In this document: piece after piece, positions 1,788 to 31,210 of the stretch | How positions within the stretch are numbered: the first letter of the stretch is position 1 | Layout of the letters: each line of letters opens with the position of its first letter | Assembly: GCA_048213135.1 (NCBI GenBank) | Contig: AFZH01018780.1 | Coordinates: 1-32,935 of the forward strand | Source of the DNA: Reclinomonas americana ATCC 50394 | Lineage: Eukaryota | Reading direction: 5' to 3' | DNA length: 32,935 nucleotides | Position numbers and translations under genes: made by a program | The notes under the pieces: generated by a model | What the model saw: the letters and a program-made list of their open reading frames with translations, nothing else | Told to the model about the DNA's origin: nothing | Database searches by the model: none

Positions 1788-3795
1788 TCAATGCCTGCTG
1801 CGCACTGTATCCTTGCCGTCCAGATACTCGTCGGCCTGCTGCAGCAGCCAGCGCACCTCGTCGAGCGGCGCTGTCAGCGACGACTCGCGTGATCCCTGCA
1901 CATCCATGTGCACAAAGGCCACACAGCCCTGCACACATGTGCACAACTCAGCTTTGGGTGGCACTGTCTCTCTTTCTCCCTGTCCCCCTTTTCCTCATTC
2001 TCTCTCGCACGTCTCACACAATTGGCATCTCCATCGAGAGCACGGAGCTGGAACAGCCGTGTCTGTCCCTCCCTTACCCTCTCTCCCTCTTCTCTCATCC
2101 TCTCCCCTCCCTCCCCCTCTCCGTCTCCGTCTCCCTCTCCCCCCTCCCATCCCCCCGCCTCACCTGCACCACAGCGAGTGCGGCCAAACACGGATCCCAC
2201 GGCATGCTGGAGGGGAGCCCACCGGTGTGCGTCACTTCCACGTGGGCACACGGACGATTCGACGCAGAAAACATGCGAAACACAAAGCCGGCGCCGTGCG
2301 GACCGACTACAATGTCGGCGTCCACAAAGTGCAACACGGCCTCCGCCGCCGTGGCCAGCGGTGGCATGACGGCCACGTCAAAGTGTGGAAACTCACGTCG
2401 CATTACGTCCGCCACCTGCCCTGTCGCGATGAGCAGAAGACGCTGCGCTTTGCGCGGGGAGTGTCACAAACGAGACCTGCTCATGGTTGGCCAGCACCCG
2501 CACACCGTCGCGTTGCAGCAACACGACACGACGCACCGGTCGCTGCGTCGCACCCAGCCTTCGCAGTGACACGGATCGTCGGGCTGCGCAGATCGTTGCG
2601 GTGAGAGGAGGAGGAAGGAGGAGAAGGAGGAGAGAGTGCACGTGACGCAACGTGCCCAGTACTCGCGCAGCGCGGCACGCACCATGTCGCCGTGCAGCAA
2701 CATGAACACGCGATGCAGTTCACGAATGATGGAGGGTTGCGGCTGCGTGCAGTACATGCCGGCGGTGAAGTACACTTTCCGGGCCATGACAGGCGGTGGC
2801 CCGAGGATCAGCTGTGCCACACACTCATGTCGTGAGGGATTATTCGACAGGCGTGCAACTTCACACACATATCGAGGCGCAACTCGTTCGCGTGGAATGC
2901 CCACAGTGGCAAACAAGTCGTACGTCATCTCGTCACCGTAGCGCCCGGCGCGTGTGAGAATCACAATGCTGCGATCCGCATGCACCTCGCTCCACACTTG
3001 CAGCAGGCGTGCCAGCGAGTCCGCCACAATGTGAAACACATTGTCGGCATGCAACTGCAGGAGCGGCAGCACGGCATCGGCCAGCAGCACAGTGTCTGTG
3101 GCGGACCACCAGCGCGACTCGACATGCCCGTGTGGCTCGCACGAGCGGGCAATCAGCAAGTAGTCGGCGGTGTACACAAAGTCATTCGCGGCAATCACCT
3201 GCGCGACACACAAGTGAGCTCAAGAGACTCGGTCAAGGGGATGGCGGAAGACGCACCGCATTCTCCACCACCAACGAGTACGACGGCGAGAACGATCTCT
3301 CCGCCACCATCGACAGTCTCTCGTCGACGCGCGAGGGCGTGGCACGCACATTGATATCCAACTGTGACGACGCCTGCATGCAACGCATCATGCACCCGAC
3401 AATCACTGCAGACCTACACTGTAACACTATACCTGATCAAACTGCGGATGCCGACGCAGCACATACGCCGGCGACTGCACCTGCGACACCACATCGTACA
3501 ACTCACTGGCAAACAACTTGCGCAGGCGACCGGCTCGCACCGACAAGGCCTCCGCACGCAGCGACAGCCACGAGGAGAAGGCGCGAGTGCACTCGCGACG
3601 AAGCTGAAACGGTGCTGTGGCGTAAGCCACCGCGCCTATGCCCTCCTCGGATAATGATGATGCCTCGAAGAGCGACCATGGAAAGCGATCGGAGCATGAA
3701 GAGGAGGAGGCGACAAGTGTGGAGAGCGATGGAGCTGCGGCGATGATGGCCACGAGAAGCGCCACGAGCAGGAGAGTGCTGGCGCAGAGTCGCAT
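1788..3795 (-). CDS. Glycosyltransferase family 61 (DUF563)-like type II membrane/secreted protein, ~7 introns
   Basis: N-terminal hydrophobic anchor MRLCASTLLLVALLVAIIAAA. GT61-like motifs NVFHIVADSLARL, GIPRER, RVVLLQRDG-RVLANHEQV and FVDADIVVGPHGAG. Exons join in frame through GT-AG introns, ending ...DGKDTVRSRH* at 1788. Confidence 0.75.
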
Positions 3796-3851
3796 TCGCT
3801 TGTGTCGTCCTGCCTGTTGCAGCGGACACGACTTTCCCTTCCGTCACAGTC

Positions 3852-6800
3852 ATGGACGACTATGCGACGTGGGTTCGTTGCTCCGCTGTTATGTAGTCAC
3901 TTGCTTTCTCTCTCTCTCTCACTCGCGCGTGAACGAGTGCAGAAATCATCGTCGGCACACTCGAGTATCATTCTGCAAGCGTTCCGAGTGCCGGTGGTGC
4001 GCTACCAGAGACACACGGAGCGACTCACTAGCGCGGATGAGGCCAAGTACTCCAAGTATGAGGTGTGTGTGTGTGCCTGTCTTTCTCTCTTGTCACACAC
4101 AGACACTGACTGTGTGGGCAGAGTATTGATTACACGCGCGTCGACAATGACTTGTTCCGCGCCAATGTCAGCATGGAGACGCGTTTTGTTGCGTTCATCC
4201 TCTTCTTCTACCTCTCTTCTCTTGTTTTGCAGCTCACGTGCGCAGTCGGTCATGAGTACCAATGGGCAAAGGTACGCGATGAGTGTGCTCATTGGATTGC
4301 TGGTCGGCATGTTGTCTTTCGGGGTGCATTGGACCATCGATCGGCTGCAAGGGTGGAAGAACGAGTGGGCGAGCAGCTGTTGCGTGGTGATGGGGAAAGG
4401 CACAGCGGAGTGAGCTCTCGCACGCGGACAAGGATGACAACTGTGTTCCACTCTCCCTTGCCTCCGTCATCACCTGCTTTCTTGCTTCACCTTTCCTCAA
4501 ACTCCCGTGTTCCGATGGCCTCCTTGCATGCTCTTCTCTCCCCGTCACTCTCTTTCGCCTGGACGACGCCATCCATCAGCTTGTGTTCGATTTCAATCGC
4601 GGTGGATCACTCTTTTCTCGCCGTCGTAAGAACACCATCTCTCTTTCTCCGCCTTTCCTCGGCTTCCTGTGCCCGACTGCATACCTGCCATGTTGCAAGA
4701 TCACTCTTCTCTTCCCATCACGACAACGTCGTCACAGCTCATGCATCGCCTGCTTTCTTTGTCGTCTTTCCGACTACATCCCTATCACGTTCTCTTGTAT
4801 CCAAAGCGGACCACTCTGTCCACTTCCTCGCACTCGCGCCTGGACCGCGCCGTTCATGTCACGTACCGATCTCTCCGTTGCGATTGCAGCGAAGAACCCT
4901 CTTCTCCCATTCAAAGCCTGCTCTCTTTCTCCGTCATTCGTCGCCTTGGTTGTGCTCGTTTATTGCACTCGATGATCCACTCGCCGCCTTTCTGTGTGAT
5001 CTCTCGTTCCCCTCCTCTTCCTCCTTTGTATTGCCTTCATCGCCCGATGTCCTTTGCCATCCTCCCCCCCTTCGCCTTCTCGCCTCTCATCGTTCTCCCC
5101 CACCACAGTCCTCGCGGACGACAGAATCACAGTGGCGTTTTTGGTGTGGATGAGCTGCAATCTGGTGCTGGCCTTCGCCTCCGTCTCCATTGTGCTCTTC
5201 TGGGAGCCGGCGGCGGCTGGCGGTGGCATTCCCGATGTGAAGGTCAGTCGGTTCCGCCACTCATACTCTCCCTCCCCATCGTCTCCCAACCGCAGTGCCA
5301 CACACAGGCCTACCTCAATGGCGTACACTTGCCGCGAGCCATGAATGTGCGCACATTCGTCGCCAAGGTGACCGCGATGATCTTGGCTGTGGCCTCCAGC
5401 TTGCCCTGCGGTCCAGAGGTGATCGCCCCCTCGGCTCCTTCCCACTTGATTTTCTGTTGTCTGACTACTCACTCCACCACCATAGGCGCCGATGATTCAC
5501 GCCGGAGCCATGGTGGGTGGCGGTCTATCGTCACTCGGCTCCAAGAGTATCGGCTGCAATCCGCGCACGCGCTTCCGCAATCCTCGTGATCGGTGCGCCA
5601 GGCATAGAAAACCCTCCCTCCTTCCCTCCCTTGTTCATTCACCTCTTGTGCAGACGAGACTTTATCCACATCGGTTCAGCAGCGGGTGTGTCGGCTGCAT
5701 TCGGTGCGCCGGTCGGCGGCACGCTGTTCGCCATCGAAGAGACGTCATCGTTCCACTCGAACGAGTTGACCGTGTTGAGTCTGTGCGCTGCCGCGTCAGC
5801 CACACTCGCATACGGATTCTTCCTGAGGTGCGTACTTCAGGGCTGAGAGGTCACCCAGAGACGTGCTCTTACCGACTCACCATCTTCGACGTAGCGGCTT
5901 CAATGGGACGCTCAACAAGACGTGTTGCGTGATGGCAATGATTCGTCTCGCGGTACTCCTCGCTTCGTCTAACATTGAGTGTGTTTGATGCAGCCACTGT
6001 CATGTTCGAACTCGGTCAGACGACGGATGAGGTATGTCTCTCAACGTGCTCCTCTCATCGCCAGTGCACGTCCTCCTCAACTCTCTGCGTCACAGTACCA
6101 CATCGCAGAGCTTATTCCGTTTTCAATCCTCGGCTTTATCGGTTTGTCGCTTGCATTCGCCACGACTTTGCACTTCAACTGGCTCACGCCTACATGTGTC
6201 GGTGCGCGCAGGTGGCACCCTCGGCGCCCTGTTCACCTGGCTCAATGTGCAACTCAATCGCTGGCGGAGAGACAACATTAACTCGAAACGGTGGGCGCGA
6301 CTCACTGAAGTCCTCGTGATTATGGTGATCTGCTCGGCGGTTTTCTCCCTCGTGCCTGCCAGCTTTGGTTGCTTGTTGCGTGGAGCGTGTGAATACGCCT
6401 TACTGCTCTCGGCACTTTGTTGTGTGTGGTGCCGACATGTTGCGCAACCGCAGACCAACACCCAACATTCAAAATCCCAACAATCTTCCCAATTTTCTGA
6501 GTGGACTCATCACGCAGTACACGTGCCCGAACGGGTACTACAATGGTACGCAGAAGTGCCATTCACTCTCGCTCCACGTGGCCGCTGCATGATGCACTCA
6601 CTCACGTTCATGCAGAAATGGCCTCGCTCTCCTTCGACACGCAAGAAGCAAGTGTGCGTCGCCTCTTCCTGACCAATGTGCCGGACATGGTGAGCGGATT
6701 GCTCTTCGCCGCCTGCTCTCGTCTGCATGCCAACCATTGTTGCTTGTTGCAGTTCTCGCTGACCTCGCTGGCCATCATGTTCTTTGCGTACGCCATCCTG

Positions 6801-8309
6801 TCGTGCCTCACGGCCGGCTCGGCGATTTCCGGCGGCCTTGTCATTCCGGTGCGTCGGCTCTCATGCCGCGTCGTCTCACACCCTCTCTCACTCTCTGCAC
6901 CCGACACACAGATGCTTGTCGTGGGTGGTGCATACGGACGCTTCTTTGGTGTTCTCCTCAACAGATGGTGGCCAGGCACGGTACGTGATCTTGATTTCTG
7001 ATTGCACGTACGTTTCGTGCGCTCACCCAATTTCTTGTTGCAGATCGAACCGGGCGTCTATGCACTGGTGGGTATTCAGCACGGTTGAGATTTGACAGAG
7101 ATTGATTCTCCTTACCGATGTGTGTGATGCAGGTCGGCGCCGCCTCGTTCTTTGGCGGCGTCTCTCGACTAAGCGCAGCGCTCTGTGTGATTTTTGTGGA
7201 GATTACCGACGGTAACGTTGTTCTGCCCACCGCTTCCTGCACATGCGCGTCGCTCATGCACTCTCCCTGTGTAGATCTCGCCTTCTTGCTGCCCGTGATT
7301 CTGGCCAGTTGCGACGGCACGCGTGCGCTGACTGCATTTCCGTGCCTCGCTCACTCGTCACCACTACGCAGTCATGATTTCCAAGGGTGTCGGTGACCTG
7401 TTCACGCACCCGCTGTACGAGAGCATGCTCGTGCTCAAGTTTGTGCCATTCCTCGAGCAAGATCCGCCATTTGTGGCTCGGTAGGCTGCCGTTTTTCATT
7501 GCCTCTCCAGTATTCTCTTCTTCTGACGTGAATGCGCCCCCCGCCAGGCGCATGCGATGTCGCGATGTGGCCAAGTGTCCGGCCGTCACGCTTCGACTCC
7601 GCGAGACCGTGGCACGCATCTGCGAAGTACTCACCAACACCACGCACAATGGATTCCCGATCGTGGACGACGAGGGTCTGTCCCGCGGGTGCGTCAAAAT
7701 CCAAAAGCCACTTTTTTGTCGGTGTGGCGTCTTGCTGACTTGGGTGCCTGCGTGCAGTCTCATCCTGCGTGCGCACTTGATGTTGCTGCTTCAGCTGCGT
7801 GTGTTCGACGTGGACTTTGTCGGCACACCGGCCGAGTTCCAGCACCTGTTGAACTCCAAGGCCAAGAAGAGTCTGGGTGCGCTCGGCCTCCTGCCGGACG
7901 ATTCGCCCAAGATAGTCCTCCTGTACAAATGTGCGCATGGCCCCGTCTCCTTTTTCCCTGAGAGTCACACTCTCTGACACATGCCTGCAGATATGAACGT
8001 GTCGCAGTTGGTGGTGTCGGGCGAGTGGAACGCCGACCTGGCCTTCCGCATCTTCCGCACCCTCGGACTGCGGCACATGGTCGTCGGTGAGCGCAGACTT
8101 CACTCCCGCGATGGACGCGCTCATTGCCTAACACGCCCACCACAGTGGACCGCCACAACCGCGTGCAAGGCATGATCACGCGCAAGGACCTCGTGGATCG
8201 CAAGCTAGACGACCAATACGAGGCCGCCTGCAGCATCGCCATGCAGGAGCTCGAGGCCATGGACAGCATCTCTGCGTTTGCAGAGGAGCAATCAGGGCAC
8301 GAGTTGTGA
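3852..8309 (+). CDS. CLC-family anion/H+ antiporter (CLC-6/7-like) with C-terminal CBS pair, ~23 introns
   Basis: Stitched exons give YESIDY, GGGIPDVKAYLNG, GPEAPMIHAG, RDFIHIGSAAGVSAAFGAPVGGTLFAIEE, SGGLVIPMLVVGGAYGR, GAASFFGGVSR, HPLYE, THNGFPIVD, FRTLGLRHM and GMITRKDL; stop TGA at 8309. Confidence 0.95.
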
Positions 8310-8414
8310 AAAAAACAAAGAGCGTCGTGTCCCCTGTCAGTCTGTCAGGTGTTTCGCGTGTCGGTGGTTGGCGATCGCCCTTCCCAAATGCACAGCTCCC
8401 GTCGCCGCCCGGCC

Positions 8415-11400
8415 ATGAGCGACTCGCCGCCCTCACCCACCAGCCGCAGCAACCGCTCCTCGGTCTCCCCGCGCCAAGTCCGCCGCAGCGGCCACTCTCC
8501 ACGACCCTCCATTGTCGTCTCCTCCGCCTCTTCATCCTCCACCACCACCATCAATGGCCACCACCCGCCTCCTCATCTCAACGGAACCTCACTCACTGTG
8601 CCTCCACTCGCACTTTCATCGTCACTCGCCGAGCACCTCATGCTGCCACTTCCCTCACCGCGCTCCGCCGGAAGCACACGACCCGTCTCCCCACGCGCAG
8701 TCTCCCCGCGCGCCTACTCGCCACTCTCCTCGCTCTCCATCGACGTGCCAAGTTACACACACACACACACACACACACACACTTTCACGCGAATGTTGCA
8801 TTTTGTTTGTGCTCATCGTATATGTGTGTGTGTTTTTAAAAAGCGGGTCCGCCCTCGCCTTCGCCGTCGCCTTCGCCGACTGCGCCGTCGCCTTCGCCGT
8901 CGGGAAGGCGCGGTTCGTCAATGGTGGCGCGCTGGTTCAAAAAGTCGACGGGGCCCTCGGAAGACAACATCAAAGTCGCCGTGCGTGTGCGCCCGTTCAA
9001 TACGTTGTTGGAGCGGTGAGTGGGCGGGAGGGAGGTGGAGGGAGAGAGGGGGGAGACATGCATGCATGTGCATGAGAGTGTGTGATTGGTTTGTGGCTTG
9101 TCGTCGTCTGAAACGTGCATGTCATGCGTGTATGTGCTCATGCATGTGTGGATGTACACGGTGCACGCTGTGTACGTGTGCACTTGTGAGGTTAGCGAGT
9201 GATGCGTGCCGAAGACTGGTCCTCCTCTCCCTTGTGAGATAGACTCGTCCGAGAGAGTTTGCCGACGCGTTTTCGTGCGTTTGCATGTCGTGTGTACGTG
9301 CTCTTGCGTGTGTGCGCGCTGTGCGTTGTGTGGAGTGTGTGTGCACTTGCGAGGTTGGGGAACGATGCGTTGGTGGAGACTGGACCGCCTTTGCATTGTG
9401 AGATAGACTCGTGCGAGAGAGCTTGCCATCGTTTCACATCCGCTGGCATGTCGTGGCGTGTTCGCGCTCTTGCGTGTGGATGCGCGGTGTGTATGTGTGG
9501 AGTGTGTGCACTGGCGAGGTTGGGAACGATGGGCTGCTGCAGACTGGTCCTTTGCGTTGTGAGATAGACTCGTGCGAGAGAGTTTGCCGACGTTGTTTCG
9601 TGGGTTTGCATGTGTGTACGTGCACTGTGCGTGTGTGGAGTGTGTGCACTTGCGAGCGATGCACATCCGGAGACTGGTCCTTTGCGTTGTTGTGTGCCAG
9701 CGCTTTCGCCTCCGTTTGTGTGTCGTGCCTGCACTTGCGAGCGATGTGTTTCCAGAGATAGGTTGTCCACGCTCTCTCGTGCGTTTGCATGTCTTGTGTG
9801 CGTTGGGGTGTTTGCTCTTGCGAGGCTGGCGAACGATGCGTTTCGAGAGACACTTGACATACGTTTGCATGCAATGCGTGGTGTGCGTTGCTCTTCGCAC
9901 TTCGTGAGATCGATGCGGGCATTTCCTACACCCGGTGTTGCACTTGTGAGGCTGGCAGGCGACGCACATCGACAGACATTCCTTCTCGCTGCACTCTCTT
10001 TTCCCTTCGCCCTGCGTTTTGGCTCAATCCTCTTTCTTGTGGCGCAGCGAGGTCGGCGAGCAATGCATCGTGGCCATGGACGGCAACGTGGTCACCATCT
10101 CCAATCCATCCAACCCGGATGCGATGCCACGCGAATACGTGTACAACTACGCGTATTGGAGTCACAACCCCGAAGACCCAAACTTTGCGGACCAGAAGCG
10201 CGTCTACGAAGACCTCGGCAATGTCGTGCTGGAGAATGCTCTGCAGGGTGCGTTTTTCTTGGTGCCAATATCCTTGTGAATGCCCTTGAGTCTCATTTTC
10301 CTTCTTGTGACAGGCTATAACTCGACATTGTTTGCGTACGGCCAGGTGTGCATGCGGTAGTGTGCGTGCGTTTGTGCGTGCATTCGCTCAATTTGCGCAA
10401 CATCTCGCAGAGTGGCTCGGGCAAGTCGTTCTCGATGATTGGTGGCAACAACGAGCACACACGAGGCATTGTGCCGAGAGTTGCGCAGCGTGGACCATCA
10501 GAAGGTCTTTGCGCATCCACAAATTTCTCACCCCGCGCACAGTTATGCCGCGACCTCTTCAACCGCTGCGAGGCGGAGATGAGCGACAATCCGGACCTAG
10601 AGTTCGAATTCTCGCTCACCATGGTGCAAATCTACATGGAGCGTCTCAGCGACCTGCTCGTTGTTGGTCGCCAGGAGCAGGTTAATTTCGCGCTCGCAGT
10701 GGAGAAAGATGTGCGTGCCCGAGGTCGCTCACTTCTCGTATCTCTCGGTGTGCAGAGCGACAAGCGCATCCGTGTTGCCCATGATAAGAAAAAGGGCACG
10801 TATGTGTTTGGCGCCAACCAGTTGCGTGTCGCGCTCGCTGCATACCCCGTGCCTCTCTCTTTTGTTGTTCGCTCACCTGCGTGTGCAGAGTATTTGTCGC
10901 CTCGTACGATGAGATGATGCACCACATGAATCAAGGGCTCCAACTGCGGTGTGTACCCCCCTATGACGCTCTCTTCTTCATCTACTCTGCGTGACCTGAC
11001 CACCCGCTACAGCATTCTCGGCACCACCGCCATGAATTTGGAGTCGTCGAGGGCGCACACCGTCATCACCATCTTCTTTAGCAAGGTGCTGTCCCCCTTA
11101 TTTTTTCAGAAGCATGTCTCTTTCACGCCCGCTCACGTGGACGTTGTCTCGATTTCGTAGAAGGACCGCCGTGCTGGCTCCTCCACCGAGGCCAAGATCA
11201 ACCTGGTCGATCTGGCTGGCTCCGAGCGCGTCGGCAAGGCCGAGACGGAGGGTATCGCGCTGAGGGTGCGTGTCTCTGTCTTTTTCGTTCAGCGTCGACT
11301 GCATTCTCATCCTGCGTGACCACAGGAGGGAGCCAAGATCAACCTTTCGCTCATGACACTCGGTCGTGTGATTCGGGACTTGGCGCGCGGCCAGTCGGCC

Positions 11401-15838: not shown

Positions 15839-15940
15839 TGTAAGCGGATTTATCATGCGTTTCCTTTTTCTCTCCCCACCCCGCGTCTTGTACAACGAAA
15901 TGTTCATTAACCAACTTCCCGCCGAGGGGGCACACGCTCG

Positions 15941-18775: not shown

Positions 18776-21700
18776 ATGGCCGACGGCATTGCTCAGTTCC
18801 GCCAGCTGGCGCATCGCTTCCTGCAGGGTGCTGGCGACGACGGTGGCGATTCTGACTTTGTCTCTGCACTTCTCGGCGGCGACAAGAGCGACAAGTGGAA
18901 TCGGCGACGCAAGAAGTTGTCGTTGCAGATGACGAGTGCGAGCAGTCGTGCGGCGTCGTATGATCCGGAGGGCATTGGGCGCTCGCAGGCGTTGCCGTAC
19001 GCGGCGGCGCTGCATGCGGAGCGTCACGAGTACCTCCAACGCGTGTTGACCAGTGTGCGAGCCGACTACAAACCCGGCTCTGGTGAGCTGCCTTCGTCCA
19101 CCTGGAGCACCTGATCGCTTCTCACAGCGGGTGCACGCAGACTCCATCAACGTGTACGACGCGCTGCGCAGCTGCCGCAGTTTGGAGCGCTACCTCAACT
19201 GGAACTACAAGCTGAGCGACGAAGATCGGGTGCTGCTGCTCAACTACTATGTGCATGCATCGCTCGTGCCCGAGATCGACTCGTACATCATGTGCCGTTT
19301 CTTGAAGATGGTCACTCGCCTGCTCAAGTTGCGTGAAAGTGCACCTCATTTGGAGAGCAATGACAGTGCTTGCTTGGTGGCTCACACGACCACGCGCAGG
19401 CCGGAACGACTCACCGGCTTTGTGATGCCGTGGCGACCGTTCTTTGATCGCATTGTGAAGGATTTCCTGTTGCCTGTGCGCATTTCGGAGATTGCTCACA
19501 GATATGTCGCCTCCACCTCCGCCAACTACCTCGCTCCTCCTGAGTCGCGTCTCGCTCATCACATTATTTCATTCGCGCGCACAGCGACGTCCAAGAGCAT
19601 TGGCAGCTGGCTGGTCGAGGTCGTGCAAATGTCAAGGCGCTTCTTCGCCCCCGAGGCGTCGGAAGAGATTCTCGACCAGTGTCGCCAGTGGCTGTGCCCC
19701 ACCGACATGAATTGCTCGCTGGCGGTGGTGCGCTTGTGTTTGTGTGTCTGTACGCTCTCTCCAGGTCGCTCGCCTCGGTCTCATAGTGGTGACAGGCTGT
19801 GCTCGGCGCCTTCTTGCCGCCGAACCCGCCCAACCCCGCCAAGATTGTCGACGAGCTGATGGAGCTGTGGGCGTGGGATGGTGTGTTGGTGCTTGTGAGC
19901 GTTGCGTGTGGAGGAGGATGCGGGAGCTGATTGTGCTGGCGCCCGGCGCAGGTCACGATAACTTTTGGGACGCCAACTTTTTCATGATCTTCGGTCGCAT
20001 GTCGAACCACTGCGGTGACCAGATCAACTGGTCCAAGTACTTGGACCTGATCTTCACCAAGCTGATGGCGATTCTCGGTGTGTACAGAGAGAGAGAGAGC
20101 TCTCGATGTGTCGCTCGCTGACCCAGAGTGAACAGATTTGCGTATCGGCACGCTGCCCGACACGGTGGCTCGCAACCCAGCGCACAGCCTCTGCAGCATC
20201 TTCATGCAAGTGCAGGATGCCGCAGTTGCGCCTGCCTGATGTTGCGCACGTGCATGTCGGCCATGCCCTCACACGCCGATTGTCATTCCCCGTCGCAGAA
20301 TGTGGCCATTCGCAGCGGCGCCTCGCTGCTGGTGCATCTGTTGTCGCCGCAGGACCCGGCCGGTCTTGTCTTCTTGCGCCGATTCATCAACTCGGTGGAA
20401 GTGTGCGTCCCCACCTCGGCTTTGTGACGGAAGGTCGTGCGTCTGCTCACCTTGTCGCTGCGCCAGATTCTACCATCCCGCACAGACGGCCGGCTCGTAC
20501 GGCAATCTCATGTCGCTGATGGACGGGCTGTGTCTGCGCTTCTCCGATCGCTTGCTGGAAGGTTACGATGATGTTGGTGTTGCTGTTGCTGAGAGAAAAG
20601 GAGTCGCTGATTCGGCAGTGCTCTTCTTCCTCCACCCCCGCAGAGAGTGAAGGCCGTGCTGTGTACAGCTCGTCGCTGTTCTTGGAGGTTTGCTCGCAGA
20701 ACCCGAAAGTCTCAATGTTGTTGACTTGGTGCCTCTTCTGACGCTGGTGCTTTTCACAGGCATCGCACAAGGAGGAGTTTGTGCGCATTGTGTTGCCGCT
20801 GCTGCTCAAGTCCATGTACTCGAAGAACGGAAGCATGCGCAAGTTTGCGCAGCAGGGATTCAAGTATATTTCCTGTTGCGTCCTCCACTTTGTTGGTTTT
20901 TTTACTTTTATCCTGCGGTGGCATCGCTGAACGAGGGAGCGCGCCTGCGCAGTCATTGCACCCGAACTAACATTCCCGGCATTCATGGAGAACATCACGG
21001 GGTCGCTCGAGACGCTTACCGAGGTACTTTCGCGTCTTGTCCTGCTCTGGTGCCGCACGTGTGTGTGTGTGTGTGTGTTGACTTGGCATGAATGAAGGTA
21101 CACCGCGCGCCCGCTGCCTTCAACGTGTGCGGGCAAATGTACCGCAGCTTGGCCGCTGGTCCACCCGGACCGGCAGCCATACGATTGCTGTCGATCTTGC
21201 CGCACTTGCCGGGCTCGCTCATGGCCAGCAACATGTCCAAGTCGAACTCGGTGATTCGCTTCGCCTCAGGTACGTGTGCATCGCGTTCGTCGATCACGTG
21301 ACCGTCCTGCGGCATCCTCATTGGTTTTGTCAGGACTGTTGAGCATCGTGCCCATGCTTCCGTGCGATTCGTCGCATCCGGACTTGTTGCAGCTTCCCGA
21401 GGAGCACAGGTAACGTCCACGATCGGGAACGTGAGAAACTGGGTGGATGGGTGAGCTGACGATGGCGCAGGGAGGCGATTGTTCTGCTCTCGGCCAACTG
21501 GGAGGAGTGGTCATTCTCGCTCTTTAACAGCCTGATGGAGTTTGTTGCGTGCGACTTCGATGCTACTTGCCAGACATGCGACACGCAGCCTCACTTCCCG
21601 AGCGTGCAGATCAAGAATGTGTTGCCACCAAAGAAGGGCGACGTCGTGGTTGGTCCGCGGTGTCAGGTGAGAGTCGTTATTGTTGTGAATGTGGATGAGC

Positions 21701-24700
21701 GCCGTGTCCTGACGTACATTGGATCCCCCCAGCTGCTGGTCAAGCTGCTGCTGTCGCACACCACGGAGGCGGTGGCCGAGCGATTGGTGCGCCACGTGTT
21801 TGACAAACTGTCGGCGGCCATCAACATGGACATTGTCACCACGGCTTCGATCATTGTCGGTCTGGTGGCCTCGGTGCGCAGTGCGGCCACACTGCGCCTG
21901 TTCGTGGAGCACGCTCATTCGCTGTTGGTACGACGCACGGCAAGTGGTCTCGCTCCGAACCACGCGACGGAGAGTGAGTTCATGTGGAATCTGGAGATCC
22001 TCGCCGACTGTGTGTCGCCCACCGGTGCAGCTGCGCTCCCTCATGCGTGCGTCCTTGTTGGTTTTCGGGTCGCCACTTCCAAAACTCCTCAAATTTCTCA
22101 TTTCCCTTGCACAGCCGCAAGATCATGGAGATTGTCGAGGCTTGCTCGCAGAGCGACAACCGCAAGATTCGCAGCCGCGCTGCGCGCCTGTGCAAGTCGG
22201 TGCGTGGCTTCTTGACTTGAACACTCCCGCATTCTTTCGTGTTCCGACCTCTCTTCTCCCCCCTTGCAACACAGCTGCTGTGGACGCTGACGACTACCTT
22301 CCCGGTTGAGTGGCGCTGTGTGCCGCCCAGCGTTTTTGAGTCGGCTGGTGAGCGGGAACGCGAGAGTACAACAACAGCAATCGTCGTCGTCGTCGTCAAA
22401 CCACTCACCTATTGTGTGACACACAGATTTCCAGAAGGCGAGCTGGAAGTACTGGGCTCGCACGTACTCGTACGACGAGTTGCAAGTGCAGTGGCACGTG
22501 CCGGTACGCATTCCGTGGTGTATCTACTGCCCAGTGTGGAAGCGTGTGTGTATGGCTAATCGTTATCGCGTACGTGCAGAGCGTGGAGGAGGTCGAGTGC
22601 GCGTGCCAGATTGCCGCCACCGTGGTCGACACCCACCTCGATTTGCTGGACGAGTACATTGTGGAGTTCAGTGTGCTGCCGGGCGGAAGACAGCGCTCAG
22701 TGTCGGCGCCACCAGCAGTGGATAGCAGCGGCGCAGCAGCTGAGGCAGCGCCGCCGTCATCATCCACCCATCTGCAGGTCGAAGCACCCACGTCAAGCCG
22801 CTCACCGAGCGGAGCGTCGTCCGTCACGTGCGTTCGTGCACTTTTGTCTTCCTTCTCTCTTACGTTGTCTCACGTGTGTATTGTAGTGATCGACGAGGTC
22901 GCGCCATCCAGTCGCTTGTCATGCTGCGCGAGGTGTTGCGCGGTGCCAGCATGACCATTCCAGAGTTGCGGTCAGCCGCCGGCGCCGCCACGGCTCCTGA
23001 CGACACACCCGGCATTGGAGACGACGCGGAGGAGATTGACGAGCACACGTGAGTCAGCTGTTTGTCTCGCACTCACGCTTGTATGTGAGGCATGCTGATT
23101 TCACAAATTTGTTGTGTTGCGCAGTCACCCACGCCTCCCGGTAGAGGTTGATCGCGGTCGCCTGAGCATCGCTGAGCATAACCCTGCGCTGCATGGTTTG
23201 TTTGCGATCTTGTCAGCTGACTCTTGATATTCGCTTGCTCACTCTTTCCGACTTGACAACAGCGCGGATCAGCAGCATCCGGCAGCGCGTGGCCGTCACA
23301 TTGCATCACATTTGCTCTGACCTTTCGTCGTCGCTGCGTGACTTCCCGAAACTGTGGACGTCGGTGGCCAAGGTCACGGAAGCGCTGATCACGTACCGCG
23401 GTATTCCGATGCGCTACGCCGCCGCGCTGGACAGCACAGTGCAGTCGCACAAGAGCAACTACTACGATGCGTACCACGAGCGCAACCGCTATCACCGCGC
23501 CGATGCGAGTTGCGTTGGCCTTCCTGCACTGCGTGTGAATCGACAGTGATTCACCACGACCGTTTTTTTCTGTTTCCAGTCGATCGCGTCTACTCGCAGC
23601 ACATGCAGCGCATGCGTGCAGTAACGTGGGCGTCGGTGACACTGGAGAAGGAGTACGATGATTTGCTGGAGGACACCATCAACCTCTGCTTGCACGATTT
23701 CGCCGTTGTGAGGGGGTGAGTGTCGTCCGTCCGTGTGTGTTGCTGTGTTGGTCGTCGTACACAATGGCTGACGGCGTTGTGATGTGCAGAGTGGCGCAAG
23801 AAACGCTGCAGAAAATGTCGCGATTCCTTCCGTCCAAGCGCATCCGTGCCTACTTGCCGCGTTTCTTCCGTGTGCTGTCGAGTCGAGGTTTGCTTTGTGT
23901 GCGCACAGGCGTTTACATCAGGCTTGGGAATCTTACACACTCTTGTATGCACAGAGACCAAGGACGCGCAGCTGAAGGGTGCCATTTTCACGCTGCTGTC
24001 TCCAAGTTTGATTCGCCGCATTTTCGAAAGTTGGACATTCATTCAGTACCTCCTGTTGGCGTTGCTGTCGTCCATGCACATCGAAAAGGTGAGGAGAGAG
24101 TGTGCGTGAGAGAGATAAAGAATGCTGTTGCACGTGTTGACGTGCACCTTTGGCATCGCAGGTGTCCGTACAACGCCTGGTCAACACACTCGTGCACTCG
24201 CTGTTTGGCATGTACGAGATCACCATGTCGGTCATTGCTCGTGAGCGTCTGGCGGGTGGCGGCCCGCTGAGCACAGCCACTCGTTGCGTTGGCTCGCGCA
24301 CCATCATGTGTGCACACCGTGCCGCTGACTCAATTTCTTGTCTTATCGCACAGGCAATGTGGCGGTGTCGCGCATCGATGCAGTGGTTTGTTGTTCACCG
24401 ATCCACACTCCGATTGCTTCCCACATGCTAACCTCGTAACGACGCGCAGATGGACTTCCTGCTGCAGTCGGTGCGTGCTCCGAACCCAGACGCACCGCTG
24501 GTGCCGCCCGACTCCACCACCGATGCCGATCTGCGAGCGGCATATCGTGTGTTCTGCGACGACTACATGGCCGGCAAGTTTCGTTCTTTCCCCCGTCGCA
24601 TCTGTTTGCCATCTCTTTTTGACCTCGTATCTCCATTACAGCATTCCTGTGCATCACTGGAAGTTCCAGCTGGTGGTGGTGGGCTCACTGGCCGCGCTGG

Positions 24701-27700
24701 TGCGCACCGATGTGCGCCCGTCGGCCGCCGCCGTGGTGTTCCTCACGAGGCAGATGACGTCGGAGATTCTGTCGATTCGCAACACTGCGTTGCGTAAGCT
24801 TTGCACGCCACAGGGTTAGCTTGTCTGCTCAACGCCCTCTCACACAGATCGCATGCCATGAATCTCATGCTGTCCCACTTCAAGTACCCTTCGCCGCGAG
24901 TCATGATTGATCGGTGCTGCGCGTCTCTGCCATCGCGCTAGTCCCCCACCTTTTTTTCGTGTCTCACCGATGTTTGTCGGCACACAGACCTGCACTGGAC
25001 AAGCCGTCGCCATACCATCAAATCGAAGTGTTCGCCCGTGTGCCGCAGACGGAGAGCGAGTGGAAGGATTGCGAGTTCATGGAGCGAAGTGCGTGATTCG
25101 ATTGCGCGATGTACGCGTGTGTATCACATGCACTCACCCTCCCCTACACAGACTGCTTTGGATTCTACCAGCTCCCACGACGCTTCCCCGTGTACTCGTA
25201 CCGCGACGAAGTGATTCAGGCTGTGCGCAGCACGCCGGAGGGGCAGGAGCGTGTGGCCACTGTCGACGCACTGGCGGTGTTGCTCACGAACCTGTTCCAC
25301 GAACAACACAGTGCGTGCAGGGCATCATCACCTCCTTTGCCACCGAGTGTCATGCTCACTCCCTGTGCTTGTGGGTGCTTGTGCAGCGGCGGACGATGGC
25401 AAGAGCGTGAACTTTATTCGCAAGTACATTGACATGTCATTGCTGGAGGTCGACTCGAACGTTGCGTGCACCGCACCCGTACTCCTCATACTTCATCAAC
25501 GAGTTGCTCACCGTCGTCGATGTACACAGCCGGTGCCGTACAGCACCTCGCTGGCCAACATTTGGAAGGGCTGGGCGCAGATTCTCGGCCTCAAGTTGTG
25601 GGACGAGCTCAAGCCGATCCTGCACGACTTCAAGGCCATTGCTGGCCAGACCATCCCGGAGGAGCGCACCAAGATGCGCGCCACCGCCGAGATCATTGGT
25701 GGCTTGTCGCGTGGCTGCAAGCACTGGCCGTATGCCCACCAAGTGCAATACGTGCGTCGACCGCCATCTCACCTGTTGTATGAACGGTTTCGTTGGTGCT
25801 CATTTGTTGTGTGTGCGTTTCAAGTGGCGTGAGGTCAGCGAAGTGCTGCGACACTGCTTGAAGCACAGCTCGTTGCAGTGTGCTGCCGACTGGAGCGACT
25901 GCCTCCGTGATTGCGTATATGACAAGGATCCGCGGCGTATCCAGTGGCTTGTTGGTGCGTCGCTGCAACTCTCTCGCACACCATCATTCATGTGTGTGAG
26001 AATTGACTGGCTTGCGCGCTCGCAGACTTGCTGTTTGAGGACCTCGATCTGGGCGACGCATCGGTACCATCGTCACTGCATGTGCGGCGGCTGACGTACC
26101 TCGGACCGGTGATTGGCGAGCTGAGCTGGCGCAGCCCGCGACTGGACTGTTGCGTTTTGGGGGGGACAGTGGATGAAGGAAGGGAGGAGGAGGAGGAGGA
26201 GAAGGAAACAGACATGGGCGTTGACAAAAAGACTGTACAAGTATCTCACTTTTGTGATGTGCGATTGCAGATCGGGCACTCGACTTGGTGCGTGCGCATC
26301 TCGGCCACCCGTACCAGCAAGTGCGCGGACGCATTTCGTCGCTGCTCGTTCGAGTTGCGTGGGGAGGAGTAGCGCCGATTTCGCCCCTTATTCGTTGTAG
26401 TGCTCACGCTCGCGCAGGTGGTGCGCAACATGTGGAAGCCGGCCTTCCTACGCGCCTCTGGTGGCTTCCTGCTGTCGGCAGATGCCTCCGGCAACGAGGT
26501 GGACCCGGTGATCATGCAGTTCATTCGTGAGTGGGCGGCAAGTTTGGAGACGCTGGACATGGGCACTGCGATGGATGTGATTGCCGCGCAGCAGACGCTG
26601 CAGGTCGAGTCAGTTGCGTCAGCTTCTCTTTGGCACAGTCGGAACGAGAAGATGACAGTTGATTCGGGCAGGCAACGTCGACGGTTGGAAGCGCAGCGGC
26701 AGGCGAGGGTGCTTCGGTGCAACCACCGCCGCCTCCCGCCGGTCTCGGACGGTCGGCTTTGATCGACGTTGATCCGGCGCGCCTGGTGGCGCTGGCGCAG
26801 AGCCGCTCGTTGCCGGAGGAGTTGCAGGATGCACTCGAAAAGTACCTGGCGTCCGAGAATCGCACACTGGACGATTTGTCGAACCTGGTGTGTGTTGATG
26901 TATAGGTGTGCTTCGCTGCGCGGATTTCCTTGATCCTCACGTCGCATGGTGTGTCGTGCAGTTGCCCGATGTGACTGTGCCAGTGGAGCTGCAAGAGATG
27001 ATGCTGAAGCACTTGCACGGCGCCCTGCAGTCCAGTGTGACCGAGCTCGCCAGTCTGGTGAGTGAAGATGCTTGATTTCCCCAGTGTTTATCATGCCAGC
27101 TGACATGGTGGCGCTAAAGGACCAGGCCGAACTGGATGAGAGTGAGGAGGATGATCACGCGGCCGCCAGCGAAGGTAATGGGAGGCACAGTGCTTCTCCT
27201 TGTCTTTTTTTTTGCTGTGTACTCACTGCGGTAACACCGCCCACAGCCACGTTGCAAGTGGCGGATTCGCACCGACGACTGCCGGCCGAGATGCAGCAGA
27301 CGCTGCGCCTGCTGAACACGCTAAAGACGGCGCTCGATTTTGTCGCGCGCAGCAGCAGCTCGTGCAGCAATCGGTCGTACTTTATGTACACATTTGTGCT
27401 GATGCCGGTGCTGTTCAAGGCGCAATCTATTCCAGACGAGGTGCGTTTTTCTCGCGTGTGTGCTGTTGTCTCACAGCGATGGGGGCTCACTCCGTGCTGT
27501 GTATGGTTTGCAGTCGGTGAAGCGTCTGTCGCTGTCCATTTTCAGCGGCGTGGCGCACATTGTGTTTGTCGGTGCACGGTATCCGCCCGATGCGGCCCTC
27601 GTGTGGGGCGCGGAGTATGGTGCGCTGAGGGGAGGGGAAGAGTGTGGAGAAGGGAGGAAGGGAAGAGAGACGAACACTGTCTACATCAAGTCTCTGCCTC

Positions 27701-29039
27701 TCCTTTCTGTCTGTGTTGCCATTTGTGTAGAAGGCTGAGGGAGAAAGAGGGAATGAGGATGTCTTGTATTCAACGTGTATTTACCTCTCCGTTTCTGTCT
27801 CTCTGTCACCCTGTCAGTGTGTATGTGTCTTGTTTGTATGTGTTTCTCTGCCTTGGTTTCTTTCACTTCCGATTACATCTCTCGCTTCCCTCGACACGAA
27901 CGTGCGTGCTGTCATTCTTTCACCTTTGTTTCTCACTCTGCCCCCCTCTCTGTATGTCTGTTTGTCTGTCTGTTATGCGTGCATCGCTTCCGTGGTTTTC
28001 TCACTCCGATTGAGTCTCTTCTCTCCCTCCAGTCCCTCCCACTCTCTGTCTTTGTCTCATTCACTGTCTGATTACATCTTCCTCTTTCATCCTCACTCCA
28101 TCTATCTCTTCTGCACGTCTCCCCATGCCTCACTCCTCCCTTTCCCCTGCCCGCTGTAGCGCCTTCGAACTGCTCGGACCTCATCATCCAGTACGCGCAA
28201 CAACTGCTGATGGAGAACGCCAAGGATGTCACCTGGCTGCACAGACACGTTGTGCTCAGCATGCTGCAGTTGCGTGACGTCGCCTCCCCCTCCCGTCGAT
28301 GTTGGCACTGAACGAGCGTAACTCTGCGCAGGCCGCTGATTTTCCGCAACCGGTTCATGCTGACCGAGGCCTCGTGGGATCAATTCTTCGATGCGATCAT
28401 CGCGGCGCTGTCGGACAAGACGCTGGAGGTGCGCGAGGCGGCCTCAGTCACCCTGTCGGGCTACATTTCAGTGTTGGACGCTGAAGGGAAGCTGCCCGCG
28501 ATGATTGTTGCGTGACGCCCCCCGCTCCACTCGTGCCAGTCGCGATCACTCACTCCGTGTGTCGCAGGAGCGCTTCGAGGCACTGGCGAACTCGCCAATC
28601 AGGAAAAAGGGCAAGAAGTACGACCTCACCGATCCACTCTGTTGCGTCGCCCTTGCTTTTTCGCTCACTCTCCTTTGCGACTCATCGCCGAGTGCAGTGC
28701 GCGAACACACGTCGCTGCGTCAGAGTGGTATCCTCGGTCTGGCTTCCATCGTGCGCGCCTTCCCGCATGAGATCCGCCCGTACACGCCGCACGTGCTGGT
28801 GACCGTGGCCAAGCACATCAACGATCCGTCGCCCGTGCCGGTTCGTCTCACTCCCTCCATTTGGCGTGCATGAAGTTTGCAGGCTGACTTTTCCTATGAT
28901 GCAGACGGCCGTCAAGAAGGTGCTGAGCGACTTCTGGAAGACGCATCGCGACAACTGGGCCAAGGAGAAGGAGCTATTCACCGAGGAGCAATTAGACGTG
29001 CTGAGCGAGCTGATGATCGCGCCCAGCTACTACTGTTGA
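18776..29039 (+). CDS. PSME4: Proteasome activator PA200/Blm10, ~49 introns
   Basis: Very long HEAT-type protein with PWRPFF, SRRFFAPEASEEIL, FYHP, ILPHLPG..ASNMSKS, HWKFQ, AEIIGGLSRGCKHWP, HLGHPYQQVR, LEVREAASVTLSG, GILGLASIVRAFPHEIRPY, AVKKVLSDFWKTHRDNW and terminal APSYYC* (YYX/HbYX gate-opening motif). Confidence 0.95.
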
Positions 29040-29257
29040 GCAAAAGTGCGCAACTCTTTCTCTCTTCGTATATGTGTACATGAAATGTAGGCGTACGTAG
29101 TATGAGCATGCATCAGCAGCGACAAGGGGTTGTTGCACGAACTTGAAGCGACCAATGCTCGCATTGGGGCGAGTCATGCTTGCATTTGTTATGTCGCAAA
29201 CGCTCCGTCCGTCCGTCGCTCGCAGTCACAGTTTAGTTTGTTGTGAGAGCCAAGAGA

Positions 29258-29718
29258 ATGCAACAGTGCCCCGTGTGTGAAGCCTACTTCCCGCAAGAGA
29301 TTATCGAGCAGCACGTGGATGCGTGCCTGTCAAACCCGCCTCAACAACAACACGCACCGCTTCCGCCTGCGCCTGTGGCCGTGCACTATCCCGCACCCGT
29401 GGCACAACAGCCACAACAGCCTCAGTATGCACCACAAGTGAGGTAAGTGCACGCGCGCGCGAGAGAGAGAGAGAGAGAGGGAAGAGTGCTGTGTTCGTTT
29501 TCTCCGCTTTTTCACTCAACCGTGTGCACACCTTCGCAGCTACGTGCAGCAGCCACCGCAGGCGCACTACCCCGCAGGAAGGTGAGCGGTACCTTCTCTC
29601 ACTTTGCGTGTGTGTCGTCTTTCCTTTTTCATCACACTCATGAGGATCAATACTTTGTGCGTCGCAGCTATGTGCCGCAGCCCCCGCAACCGCAGTACCC
29701 GCCAGTGAGGTGAGCGTG

Positions 29719-29751
<33 letters not shown>

Positions 29752-30837
29752 ACTCACACACACACACACACACACACTTGCGAACATGACATTGTGTCAT
29801 GTCACCGTCTCCGTACTCAACAACGATACTTTTTGTGCGTCGCAGCTACGTGGCACAGCCACCGCAACAACCGTACCCGCAAGTGAGGTACGCGCGCTCT
29901 CCTTCTGCACTCTTCCACATCGTTTGTTTGTTCGATCTCACTCTTGTTGCCACAGCTACGTGCCGCATCAGCCGCCGCCACCGGGACCCATGTACGCCCC
30001 TGCGTGAGTAGCTCTCTCTCTCTCTTCGGCTTGCCACTTCAAGCGCGCCTCGCTCACCTCTGCTTTGCAGCATGCCGGCGCCACCGCCACCGTTTGCTCC
30101 GTACCCGGTGGCCGGCTACGTGCCGCCAACACCGCCGCCAGCATACGACGCGTTGCGTAGCGAGTCTCTCCTACTCCCTTGACCACATTCGTCTCACCGT
30201 CGCCACTGCAGACCGCACCAGCCGCTCCCGGCCTACCCCGAGGTCACACCGCACGCGCACCCACAGGCAATGCCGGTGCCAGCGCCGGTACCACACGTGG
30301 CGTTGCCGCAGCCGCCGCCACAGGCGCCAGCGCCAGCGCCGCAGCACCAGCGAGAGGGCTCGTTCCTGGCCGTGGTGGATCATCCCGCCGCCGCCGCATC
30401 GGCCACACATGCCCACCACGTGCCCGATGTTGTGCAGGGCCCGCCGCCAGTGGAGCCACCGCCATTGCCGTTGCGTCACTCGCTGTTCTTGATTGCAGGA
30501 AAGAGAAAGAGAATGCTCACTTGTCGCAGTCAAACATTCCTGCAAGTGGTCGAGGACGATGAGACCAAGGTGCGTGACCACGAGCAGGGCTTGTTCCTCC
30601 CTCCGCCCCCCACCTCGCTCACAACGAATCGACGCGCAGAGTCTTCGCCTGGCATTCGAGCTGCAGCGCCAGTTTGACCGCGAGGCACAGCCGCAAGCGT
30701 CGGGCATCTCGGCTGAGGAGGAGGAACGGTGCGCACATCTACAGATCTCCCGTCGTCTCGTTTGCCGCCTCACACACACTCCCACATGCAGATTGTTCCA
30801 ACAGTGGCTGCGTGCCAATCAGGAAGGCCCACAGTAG
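29258..30837 (+). CDS. UBZ4 (Rad18-type) zinc-finger, Pro/Gln/Tyr-rich protein with C-terminal MIU/UIM-like helix, 9 introns
   Basis: CPVCEAYFPQEIIEQHVDACL (CxxC...HxxxC), repeated SYVxQPPQxxYP exons, and EDDETKSLRLAFELQRQFDRE; all exons join in frame. Confidence 0.8.
29718..29777. repeat. Compound (CT)n/(CA)n microsatellite in an intron; similar CA/GA/GT tracts occur throughout (e.g. 1065-1087, 8755-8782)
   Basis: Directly visible dinucleotide runs. Confidence 0.9.
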
Positions 30838-30928
30838 TCGTGCGTCGGTGTTGTTGCGTTGTGGCGACGCTCGTTGAATAAATGAGAGCAGTCCTCCGTC
30901 CTCCGTCTTTCGTCGTTTCTTTGTTACA

Positions 30929-31210
30929 ATGGAGAAGAGGAGTCTGGAGGTGCGTCCATGGGTGCTTCCACGCTACCGACTGGCCACCAAGTTCGCCTTT
31001 GTGTCGGCGGCGTTGGTGTGCGGCCACCAACTCGGCATCTACCTCGGCGAGTACTACGTGCAAGACAAGATGCGCAAGCAGGAGGAGCGGCAGCGCGGTG
31101 CAGCGAGTTGCGTGTGTGCACTGGGAGTGGACGCGAGAGTGGGGAGACTCACACGTTGTCTCTGTGTGTGTTTGTGTGTGCAAACAGCGTCGCCTCCATC
31201 TTCATCATAA
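30929..31210 (+). CDS. Small single-pass membrane protein (~66 aa, one intron 31107..31187)
   Basis: MEKRSLEVRPWVLPRYRLATKFAFVSAALVCGHQLGIYLGEYYVQDKMRKQEERQRGAA-TSPPSSS*; host-like GC3-rich codons; GTTGCGT...CAG intron. Confidence 0.6.
   Translation: MEKRSLEVRPWVLPRYRLATKFAFVSAALVCGHQLGIYLGEYYVQDKMRKQEERQRGAASCVCALGVDARVGRLTRCLCVCLCVQTASPPSSS

Follow-up and report, generated by a model that had tools for sequence, protein, structure and literature searches.

Can a single genome carry two classes of ordinary 5' splice site that are read in registers one base apart? The question is raised by a stretch of the Reclinomonas americana ATCC 50394 genome (assembly GCA_048213135.1, contig AFZH01018780.1, positions 1-32,935 of the forward strand; hereafter the window, 32,935 nucleotides long), in which many predicted introns start with GTTGCG, mostly followed by T, in place of donors such as GTGCGT. 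A sequence-only reading of the window had proposed that these sites form a second major donor class, never preceded by an exonic G and recognised one base further into the intron. With slightly more confidence than doubt, we take GTTGCG(T) sites to be genuine donors of a second class, serving about one fifth to one quarter of the introns here, with pairing of the U1 small nuclear RNA (snRNA) in a +1-shifted register as its most likely mode of recognition.

The motif can be examined independently of any gene model. GTTGCG is present at all 28 positions listed beforehand (25 on the + strand and 3 on the - strand), and the base before it is A, C or T in every case. Counting both strands, GTTGCG occurs 59 times, against 33.3±5.3 in 100 shuffles (largest 46), and GTTGCGT occurs 29 times, against 8.0±2.8 (largest 17). 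Once each region is oriented by its coding strand, 28 copies of GTTGCGT are sense and one is antisense, and the sense copies follow T (11), A (10) or C (7), never G. Where the base after GTTGCG is A, C or G, 13 copies are sense (0 after G) and 17 antisense (8 after G), so that a G precedes 0 of 41 sense copies versus 8 of 18 antisense copies (Fisher test, 2e-5).

To place junctions we used a dynamic programming gene parser combining a codon model, a Markov model of intron interiors, an acceptor matrix and a length prior, with in-frame stops forbidden; in its donor-blind form GT was the sole donor information. For the + strand genes the donor-blind parse returned 120 introns, and GTTGCG (9) was second only to GTGCGT (11) among their donor hexamers. 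For the - strand genes, with models trained on + genes only, it chose the GTTGCG donors at 2883, 2651 and 16179, the first of which had been regarded beforehand as merely probable. When the interior and acceptor models were trained without GTTGCG introns, GTTGCG became the top hexamer (17 of 167); among 31 GTTGCG candidates this parse found 17 exactly, gave 5 a donor of the same phase and 4 one of another phase, and for 5 returned no intron sharing the acceptor. Phase-compatible outcomes thus make up 22 of 26, where one third would be expected (p=1e-7), with a mild circularity in that the codon model was derived from gene models that use these introns. A first-order donor model over +3 to +8, free of exon bases, retrieved GTTGCG in 25 of 120 introns, including 22 of the 25 claimed + strand sites, but such a model is self-reinforcing and was therefore given no weight.

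Homology provides a test of the junctions themselves. The Pfam kinesin profile runs ungapped across the intron at 10480 (profile positions 84-105 in the upstream exon, 106/107-145 downstream), and across 11427 it covers 251-285, a split codon, and 287 onward. The kinesin exon ending at 11593 matches profile positions 287-318 with 34.0 bits, versus 22.4 for the shorter exon of the parser, and the claimed donor at 11594 is supported by this higher score. For the CLC chloride channel gene, a hidden Markov model (HMM) was built from 29 homologues of 600-1000 amino acids (aa) found by a phmmer search with one CLC exon; the nearest are metagenome proteins and proteins of protists from several groups. 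The spliced CLC model scores 789.8 bits against this HMM, and all 22 of its junctions, five of them at GTTGCG donors (margins in Table 1), rank first among the in-frame, stop-free GT/GC-AG alternatives within ±24 nucleotides (nt). Starting the intron at the GC 3 nt downstream would lengthen the protein by one residue; this donor scored lower than the GT at each of the five CLC junctions and would interrupt the continuity of the kinesin profile at 10480 and 11427. Shifting both intron ends by one base produces TT...GN introns and would keep the mRNA unchanged only if the following exon begins with G (8 of 29). Eight GTTGCG junctions are therefore homology-supported, five in CLC and three in the kinesin motor, and removal of the introns there is predicted to restore the conserved frame. 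The PA200 exons are too divergent for a junction-level test: Pfam searches with 34 of them gave the identity of the gene and resolved no junction, and PDB searches with two of them returned chance matches only. A homologue search with a 66-aa kinesin exon yielded no matches.

These results bear on the sceptical explanation that the class is a gene-model artefact, the true junctions lying elsewhere, at the GC donor 3 nt downstream or at some other GT. Such an artefact could draw on the facts that the junctions are known here from sequence alone, that 7 of the 30 accepted introns could be read through in frame and without a stop, that at 9 of the 31 candidates the donor-blind parse preferred a different phase or a different intron, and that a self-trained donor model reinforces itself. 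It is contradicted by all eight homology-testable junctions, at each of which the GTTGCG start is favoured above all in-frame alternatives, the GC donor included, by the strand bias of 28:1 and the absence of a preceding G in 41 sense copies, both of which need no gene model, and by the - strand genes, which lay outside the training set and gave the same result donor-blind. We consider it very improbable. In 23 of the 30 accepted introns, moreover, retention is impossible without a frameshift or a stop. As far as frame and homology can predict junctions, the GTTGCG sites are confirmed as real donors forming a discrete class, and this class is present in all six genes of the curated intron set.

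Apart from their donors, these introns are, by their sequence features, ordinary U2-type GT-AG introns. All 30 listed introns run from GT to AG, and the 29 of the curated set described below all end in YAG, which is a filter of that set. Their median length is 68 nt versus 67 nt for the other introns, and phases are alike. A YTNAY motif lies 6-45 nt from the 3' end in 25 of 29 (CTCAC in 16, median distance 15 nt) versus 75 of 86 others (median 19 nt), and 26 of 29 end in GCAG or ACAG. U12-type introns have the donor consensus RTATCCTT and the branch consensus TCCTTAAC; this type was rejected for introns with a GTTGCG donor, a CTCAC-like branch and GCAG/ACAG ends like those of their neighbours. 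One heptamer common to some 30 introns in six genes might also be a mark of origin, left by copies of a mobile, introner-like intron family or by a single mechanism of insertion with GTTGCG as its 5' trace, and intron gain could be indicated by the very high density of introns. Interiors are no more similar within the class (mean local alignment score 12.9) than between classes (13.0-13.2), however, terminal repeats are absent, pairing between the 5' and 3' ends does not exceed that of the other introns (p=0.08), and lengths, branch sites and acceptors are like those of other introns. Taken together, these features argue that the GTTGCG introns are neither a repeat or introner family nor U12-type, and a common origin as the source of the heptamer is extremely improbable.

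The frequency of the class and its exon-side context were measured on the final parse. The parser had passed over short exons, and its choices at 7084, 15025/15131 and 26220 were judged wrong and replaced by hand, on sequence reading and CLC homology, with four introns (7068-7132, 15020-15084 together with 15142-15208, and 26149-26270), two of which add GTTGCG donors (15020 and 26149). This left 147 predicted introns. A curated set of 115 comprises those within the six gene bodies that are 45-136 nt long and end in YAG; among the 32 dropped are the 730-nt GTTGCG intron at 4379, for its length, and a false one at 30853. GTTGCG donors open 29 of the 115 curated introns and 31 of all 147, one of the 31 (30853) being later rejected, which makes the previous estimate of about a fifth right or slightly low. 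The last exon base is G in 0 of these 29 and in 67 of the 86 other curated introns (Fisher test, 8.5e-15), as it is in 0 of 19 versus 51 of 66 in a stricter set of retention-incompatible introns with a branch motif (4.4e-10), and in 0 of 31 versus 73 of 116 in the full 147 (1.7e-11). The proposals that ordinary donors mostly follow G, that the last exon base of this class never is G (0 of 28 among the sites listed beforehand) and that this base depends on donor class thus all agree with the counts. The commonest ordinary hexamer is GTGCGT (n=17); GTAAGT, the universal optimum donor, is found in 0 of the 115 curated introns.

The register of the class was examined by sliding a matrix of the 86 ordinary donors, columns -4 to +8, over the GTTGCG sites. 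The mean fit per site is -8.7 bits at offset -2, -9.7 at -1, -2.26 in register, +2.59 at +1 and -19.9 at +2. The best alignment lays (A)/GTTGCGT on (A)G/GTGCGT (a slash marks the exon-intron boundary): G+1 lies over the -1 G, as the sequence-only reading had proposed, T+2 is the sole mismatch, and TGCGT falls on +2 to +6. The two site types share the heptamer G-N-T-G-C-G-T, the ordinary site being looser at +3 and +4, and +7 is T in 24 of 29 GTTGCG donors, as in ordinary +6. On the exon side, the -1 base of the class (A 15, T 8, C 6, G 0; n=29) resembles the -2 base of ordinary sites (A 37, C 24, T 16, G 9; n=86), with A at 52% versus 43% (p=0.52). The probability of finding no G in 29 is 0.04 at the ordinary -2 rate and 1e-19 at the ordinary -1 rate; under a shift the absence of -1 G is therefore expected and only mildly surprising. 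Ordinary donors that lack the -1 G are mostly complete GTGCGT or GTGAGT sites, so that GTGCGT forms the strong core, which is also what follows the extra T in the class.

The same counts can be set against a U1 that pairs in its usual register with G+1 and U+2 while one U bulges out, GCGU pairing as +3 to +6. GTTGCGT is indeed GTGCGT plus one T, and a bulge at +3 (or +2) is among the validated human registers in the available excerpts of PMC4856993. A bulge would nevertheless leave the -1 base facing C9 of U1 and so favour G, as in 67 of 86 ordinary donors, where none was seen in 29 (P ~1e-19), and the bulged base could be any base. Sense to antisense counts are 28:1 for GTTGCGT, 0:2 for GTAGCGT, 2:2 for GTCGCGT and 7:5 for GTGGCGT, so that only T is enriched at +3. 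Enrichment of T alone, together with the missing -1 G, agrees more with a shift than with a free bulge, and we regard the bulge as quite improbable. The +1-shift reading is thus supported by the sequence statistics, the likely fit to U1 being gauged through the window's own donor matrix.

How such a shift could work may be outlined as follows. The 5' end of U1 would pair with the heptamer in the +1 register: G+1 to C9, U+3 to A7, and GCGU to positions 6 to 3. The G+1 of the intron would occupy the place of the usual last exon G, and T+2 would stand mismatched at the place of the usual +1 G. After the departure of U1, U6 and U5 would cut at the sole nearby GU, one base 5' of the point given by the U1 register, and an exon unable to end in G would thereby still present a full recognition helix. 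That U1, with a bulged U6 pairing, is the reader is something we infer from the logic of the sequences.

Several observations weigh against this account. Open reading frame (ORF) logic alone cannot prove the seven accepted introns that are in frame and stop-free; their read-through coding score falls below the 10th percentile of exon windows in five, the exceptions being those at 28641 and 30470. For 22 of the 30 junctions, among them the 14 of PA200, the placement is by frame (or ORF) and signal evidence only; the introns at 15020 and 26149 were set by our own reading, contrary to the parser; and all the evidence is the sequence of six genes in 33 kb. The middle bases of the class are a further difficulty, since H/GTTNNGT with NN=GC occurs 28 times in sense and once in antisense, and with any other NN at most 6 times in sense, while ordinary G/GTNNGT sites also have NN = TT, GT, GA or AC. 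This near-exclusive GC indicates some extra constraint or another reader at work; the proposed +1 register stands as far as the shift statistics go, but its plainest version, the same U1 moved one base over, does not sit well with these bases. C is found at -3 in 15 of 29 sites of the class, versus 21 of 86 at ordinary -4 (p=0.01) and 25 of 86 at ordinary -3 (p=0.04), an enrichment that a one-base shift does not account for. Finally, the near-universal 5' end of U1 would meet two mismatches in a shifted GUUGCGU, and pairing would leave the invariant C+5 unexplained.

The GC at +4/+5, the C at -3 and the poor match to standard U1 make a dedicated variant snRNA a live rival, although we consider it rather unlikely. 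In this explanation a second U1-like snRNA, another snRNA or a protein, with a recognition end complementary to GUUGCGU, would read the class, giving two parallel donor codes; one base change from a U1 complementary to GUGCGU would suffice. The sharp bounds of the class agree with such a reader, both in the 28:1 bias confined to NN=GC (other NN at most 6 in sense) and in the invariance of TTGCG, which holds by definition, together with T at +7 in 24 of 29, as would come from a perfect seven-base helix. Variant U1 snRNAs exist in humans, according to the available excerpts of PMC3561869 and PMC10870369. Compensation for the +2 mismatch would account for the invariance as well, however, and the exon-side composition follows the ordinary matrix slid by one, for which a single reader is simpler. 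An Rfam search of the window found no snRNA at the gathering threshold or at E up to 1, and gave only weak matches on CA/TG repeats. These sub-threshold matches (mir-297, mir-466, mir-3149 and SCARNA2, at 31148-31394 and 8755-8833, both on the - strand) are CA/TG-rich and apparently due to chance.

A broader possibility, which we offer as speculation and think improbable, is that two parallel 5' splice-site codes exist genome-wide, either because /GUUGCGU is read by a U1-like snRNA that differs by one base or because the U1 register is uncoupled from cleavage for one quarter of the introns. Were this doubtful extension true, exons unable to end in G would be served by a helix lying wholly within the intron.

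A few other sites in the window resemble the class or carry its motif. GTTTCG(T) donors open the introns 24578-24641 (+), 16316-16393 (-) and 25787-25868 (+). Those at 24578 and 16393 follow a base other than G (caa/ and ttt/) and fit the ordinary matrix at offset +1 versus 0 with +3.2 versus -1.8 and -0.2 versus -4.6 bits; in the third the exon ends in acg/. GTTTCG donors may constitute a second, minor variant of the shifted type. The intron 20401-20485 (+), gaa/GTGTGCGT, has its frame-compatible GT two bases 5' of a perfect GTGCGT and may represent another offset between cut site and best consensus match. Sense GTTGCGT copies unused as donors in the models lie at 19901, 30853 and 32576 (all +). 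The first is inside the intron 19881-19951, 20 nt past its G/GTGTGT donor, and could be an alternative donor; the last falls at the 3' end of the window, which is poorly modelled. The donor at 30853 (GTTGCGTT) was chosen by the parser and discarded on our own reading, as it lies after the stop codon of the proline-rich gene and before the following ATG. The accepted introns and the genes are listed in Table 1.

Table 1. Accepted GTTGCG introns and genes of the window. Bits are the CLC HMM margins of the junction, ranked first among its in-frame alternatives; "blind" is the donor-blind parse; "stop" and "frameshift" are the consequences of reading through (retaining) the intron; "in frame" means in frame and stop-free, with the read-through coding score.
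Positions	Strand	Donor	Length (nt)	Phase	Exon end	Gene	Support and remarks
2584..2651	-	GTTGCGTC	68	1	cac	GT61-like	chosen by blind; frameshift
2812..2883	-	GTTGCGCC	72	0	cga	GT61-like region	chosen by blind; in frame, -0.20 (under exon 10th percentile)
4188..4245	+	GTTGCGTT	58	0	ttt	CLC	1st of 7, 2.8 bits
4379..5108	+	GTTGCGTG	730	1	gct	CLC	1st of 11, only 1.4 bits; stop
5924..5993	+	GTTGCGTG	70	1	cgt	CLC	1st of 5, 3.9 bits; stop
6375..6453	+	GTTGCGTG	79	2	ctt	CLC	1st of 4, 5.3 bits; blind exact
7308..7371	+	GTTGCGAC	64	1	cca	CLC	1st of 7, 7.1 bits; tblastn of homologue P0076 continuous at residue 458 over the junction
10480..10542	+	GTTGCGCA	63	0	aga	kinesin motor	ungapped Pfam profile
10821..10888	+	GTTGCGTG	68	2	cca	kinesin motor	blind exact; frameshift
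11427..11494	+	GTTGCGTT	68	2	cga	kinesin motor	Pfam profile; blind exact
11594..11654	+	GTTGCGTG	61	2	cga	kinesin motor	profile score (see text); final parse
15020..15084	+	GTTGCGTG	65	1	ata	kinesin tail	own reading; with gag/GTTTGTGG at 15142, downstream frame is that of the parser's poor-donor pair (GTGCTAAG, GTCACCAC)
16112..16179	-	GTTGCGCG	68	0	gaa	NIF phosphatase	chosen by blind; stop; upstream exon = NIF profile 96-135
19328..19399	+	GTTGCGTG	72	2	caa	PA200	blind exact; in frame, -0.21
20225..20298	+	GTTGCGCC	74	0	gca	PA200	blind exact; stop
20875..20952	+	GTTGCGTC	78	1	cct	PA200	blind exact; stop; upstream exon matches HEAT_PSME4_mid; absent from the sequence-only reading
21544..21588	+	GTTGCGTG	45	0	ttt	PA200	blind exact; least certain: in frame, -0.25, shortest, without branch motif
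23509..23579	+	GTTGCGTT	71	1	cga	PA200	blind exact; stop
24283..24353	+	GTTGCGTT	71	1	ctc	PA200	parser with intron-side donor model; frameshift; blind took donor of different phase
24789..24847	+	GTTGCGTA	59	2	tgc	PA200	blind exact; stop
25461..25529	+	GTTGCGTG	69	0	aac	PA200	blind exact; in frame, -0.47
26149..26270	+	GTTGCGTT	122	1	act	PA200	own reading; frameshift; restores exon 26271-26353, parsers took GTTGACAA at 26220; PDB and Pfam searches with the exon gave no matches
26354..26417	+	GTTGCGTG	64	0	cga	PA200	parser; frameshift; blind took another intron
26613..26671	+	GTTGCGTC	59	0	tca	PA200	blind exact; frameshift; absent from the sequence-only reading
28269..28331	+	GTTGCGTG	63	2	gca	PA200	blind exact; stop
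28507..28567	+	GTTGCGTG	61	0	att	PA200	blind exact; stop
28641..28697	+	GTTGCGTC	57	1	tct	PA200	blind exact; in frame, +0.08, not clearly intron-like; next exon = PSME4_C from profile position 4
30152..30211	+	GTTGCGTA	60	2	cgc	proline-rich	parser; stop; blind took same-phase donor 12 nt off
30470..30529	+	GTTGCGTC	60	2	gcc	proline-rich	parser; in frame, +0.03; blind took another intron
31107..31230	+	GTTGCGTG	124	1	cga	small gene	parser; stop; blind differed; moderate confidence
~3795-1400	-					GT61-like glycosyltransferase	
~3950-8305	+					CLC chloride channel	AT skew, Pfam
~8400-15835	+					kinesin	AT skew, Pfam
~18790-15944	-					NIF-type phosphatase	
~18900-29039	+					PA200/PSME4	AT skew, Pfam
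	+					proline-rich	TAG stop 30835-30837
	+					small gene	start ATG 30929

The window has a G+C content of 56-61% and is dense in short introns; AT skew and Pfam matches place five genes (CLC, kinesin, PA200, the proline-rich gene and the small gene) on the + strand, and the two others lie on the - strand. Intron density is very high, about 115-147 per 33 kb, with exons often of 30-150 nt and introns mostly of 57-90 nt, with the branch motifs CTCAC or CTGAC and the ends GCAG or ACAG. Among these short introns stand long ones of 730 nt (4379-5108), 476 nt (13014-13489) and 540 nt (27620-28159), all on the + strand; the sense strand of the first is strongly pyrimidine-rich and holds a second GTTGCG at 4877. 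The kinesin gene apparently starts at about 8414 (MSDSPP...), with a first motor exon at 8945-9015 (+), and in its region 8396-10047 long introns of 467-770 nt, which the parser resolved poorly, precede the dense motor exons that begin at 10048; models there are uncertain. The PA200 frame could be read through to ...SYYC and a TGA stop at 29037-29039 (feature 29034-29039, +), a Tyr-Tyr-X end that presumably resembles the HbYX tail of PA200/Blm10; a GTTGAG donor that the parser placed over this stop was rejected as false. In the proline-rich region 29438-29955 (+), three 42-nt exons (29540-29581, 29668-29709 and 29846-29887) are all of phase 2 and all start with cta, and two of them have a near-identical acceptor region upstream, ...TTTGTGCGTCGCAG. 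By their sequence the three look like duplicated exon-intron units of the proline-rich gene; TRF reported only (CT)n at 29719-29755 over this region.

For a few human splice sites, shifted U1 pairing serves as a rare rescue. If a fixed, one-base-shifted donor does open every fourth or fifth intron here, evolution could act on the recognition register as a component of the splicing code, and this genome would offer a natural system for studying how U1 binding is coupled to the choice of cut site by U6 and U5. It would further show how the coding constraint on the last exon base can be relieved, and would inform the question of whether a parallel code can arise from variant snRNAs. Gene finders that use a single donor matrix will mis-annotate many introns in such genomes, as our own parser did until its donor model allowed two classes.

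The closest known counterparts are mammalian. That U1 can pair in a shifted register at human sites is established, as described in the excerpts of PMC4856993 and PMC9311317, and the existence of a +1-shifted mammalian class, asserted by the sequence-only reading, is borne out to that extent; the example it gave, GUUAAGU, does not appear there, the tested site in the excerpts of PMC4856993 being A/GUCAAGU. The mammalian sites (Roca and Krainer 2009, as cited in these two papers) likewise have a GT donor with the best consensus match one base into the intron, G+1 replacing the -1 G, a mismatch at +2 and the cut still at GU. They differ in scale, since one heptamer serves 29 of 115 introns here, and all validated noncanonical registers together are put at about 1.5% of human 5' splice sites (PMC4856993, excerpts), and in their core, which is GCGU here and AAGU there; U1 pairing at the sites of the window is putative. 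The bulge and asymmetric-loop registers of U1 (Roca 2012, Tan 2016) also place an extra nucleotide in the first intron bases, but there the -1 base stays paired and G is favoured, whereas here -1 G is absent and the extra base is only T.

Two main 5' splice-site classes have been described elsewhere, one of the U5 loop 1 type (AG//GU) and one of the U6 ACAGA type (//GURAG), as have two LUC7-dependent classes (PMC11732430, PMC11842720 and bioRxiv 10.1101/2022.04.05.487178, in excerpts). They share with the present case the contrast between exon-side and intron-side reliance, -1 G being anticorrelated with intron-side strength, but they are soft tendencies within one register, whereas the GTTGCG class is discrete, offset by one base and without the +5 G. 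U12-type introns likewise provide a second discrete donor consensus in one genome, with donor and branch consensus sequences that differ from those of the GTTGCG class. In the tunicate Fritillaria borealis (bioRxiv 10.1101/2025.08.15.670264, excerpts), there is likewise a lineage-wide departure from the donor consensus, for which the authors raise a shifted U1 register; its introns have non-GT/AG ends, whereas here GT-AG is kept and the register alone would differ. Neither a GTTGCG, GUUGCG or GTTGCGT splice donor nor a shifted 5' splice-site register in protists was found among the matches listed in our literature searches, whose coverage is incomplete. What appears to be new here is a fixed, one-base-shifted donor at about one quarter of the introns, in six genes; the shifted register itself is known from humans.

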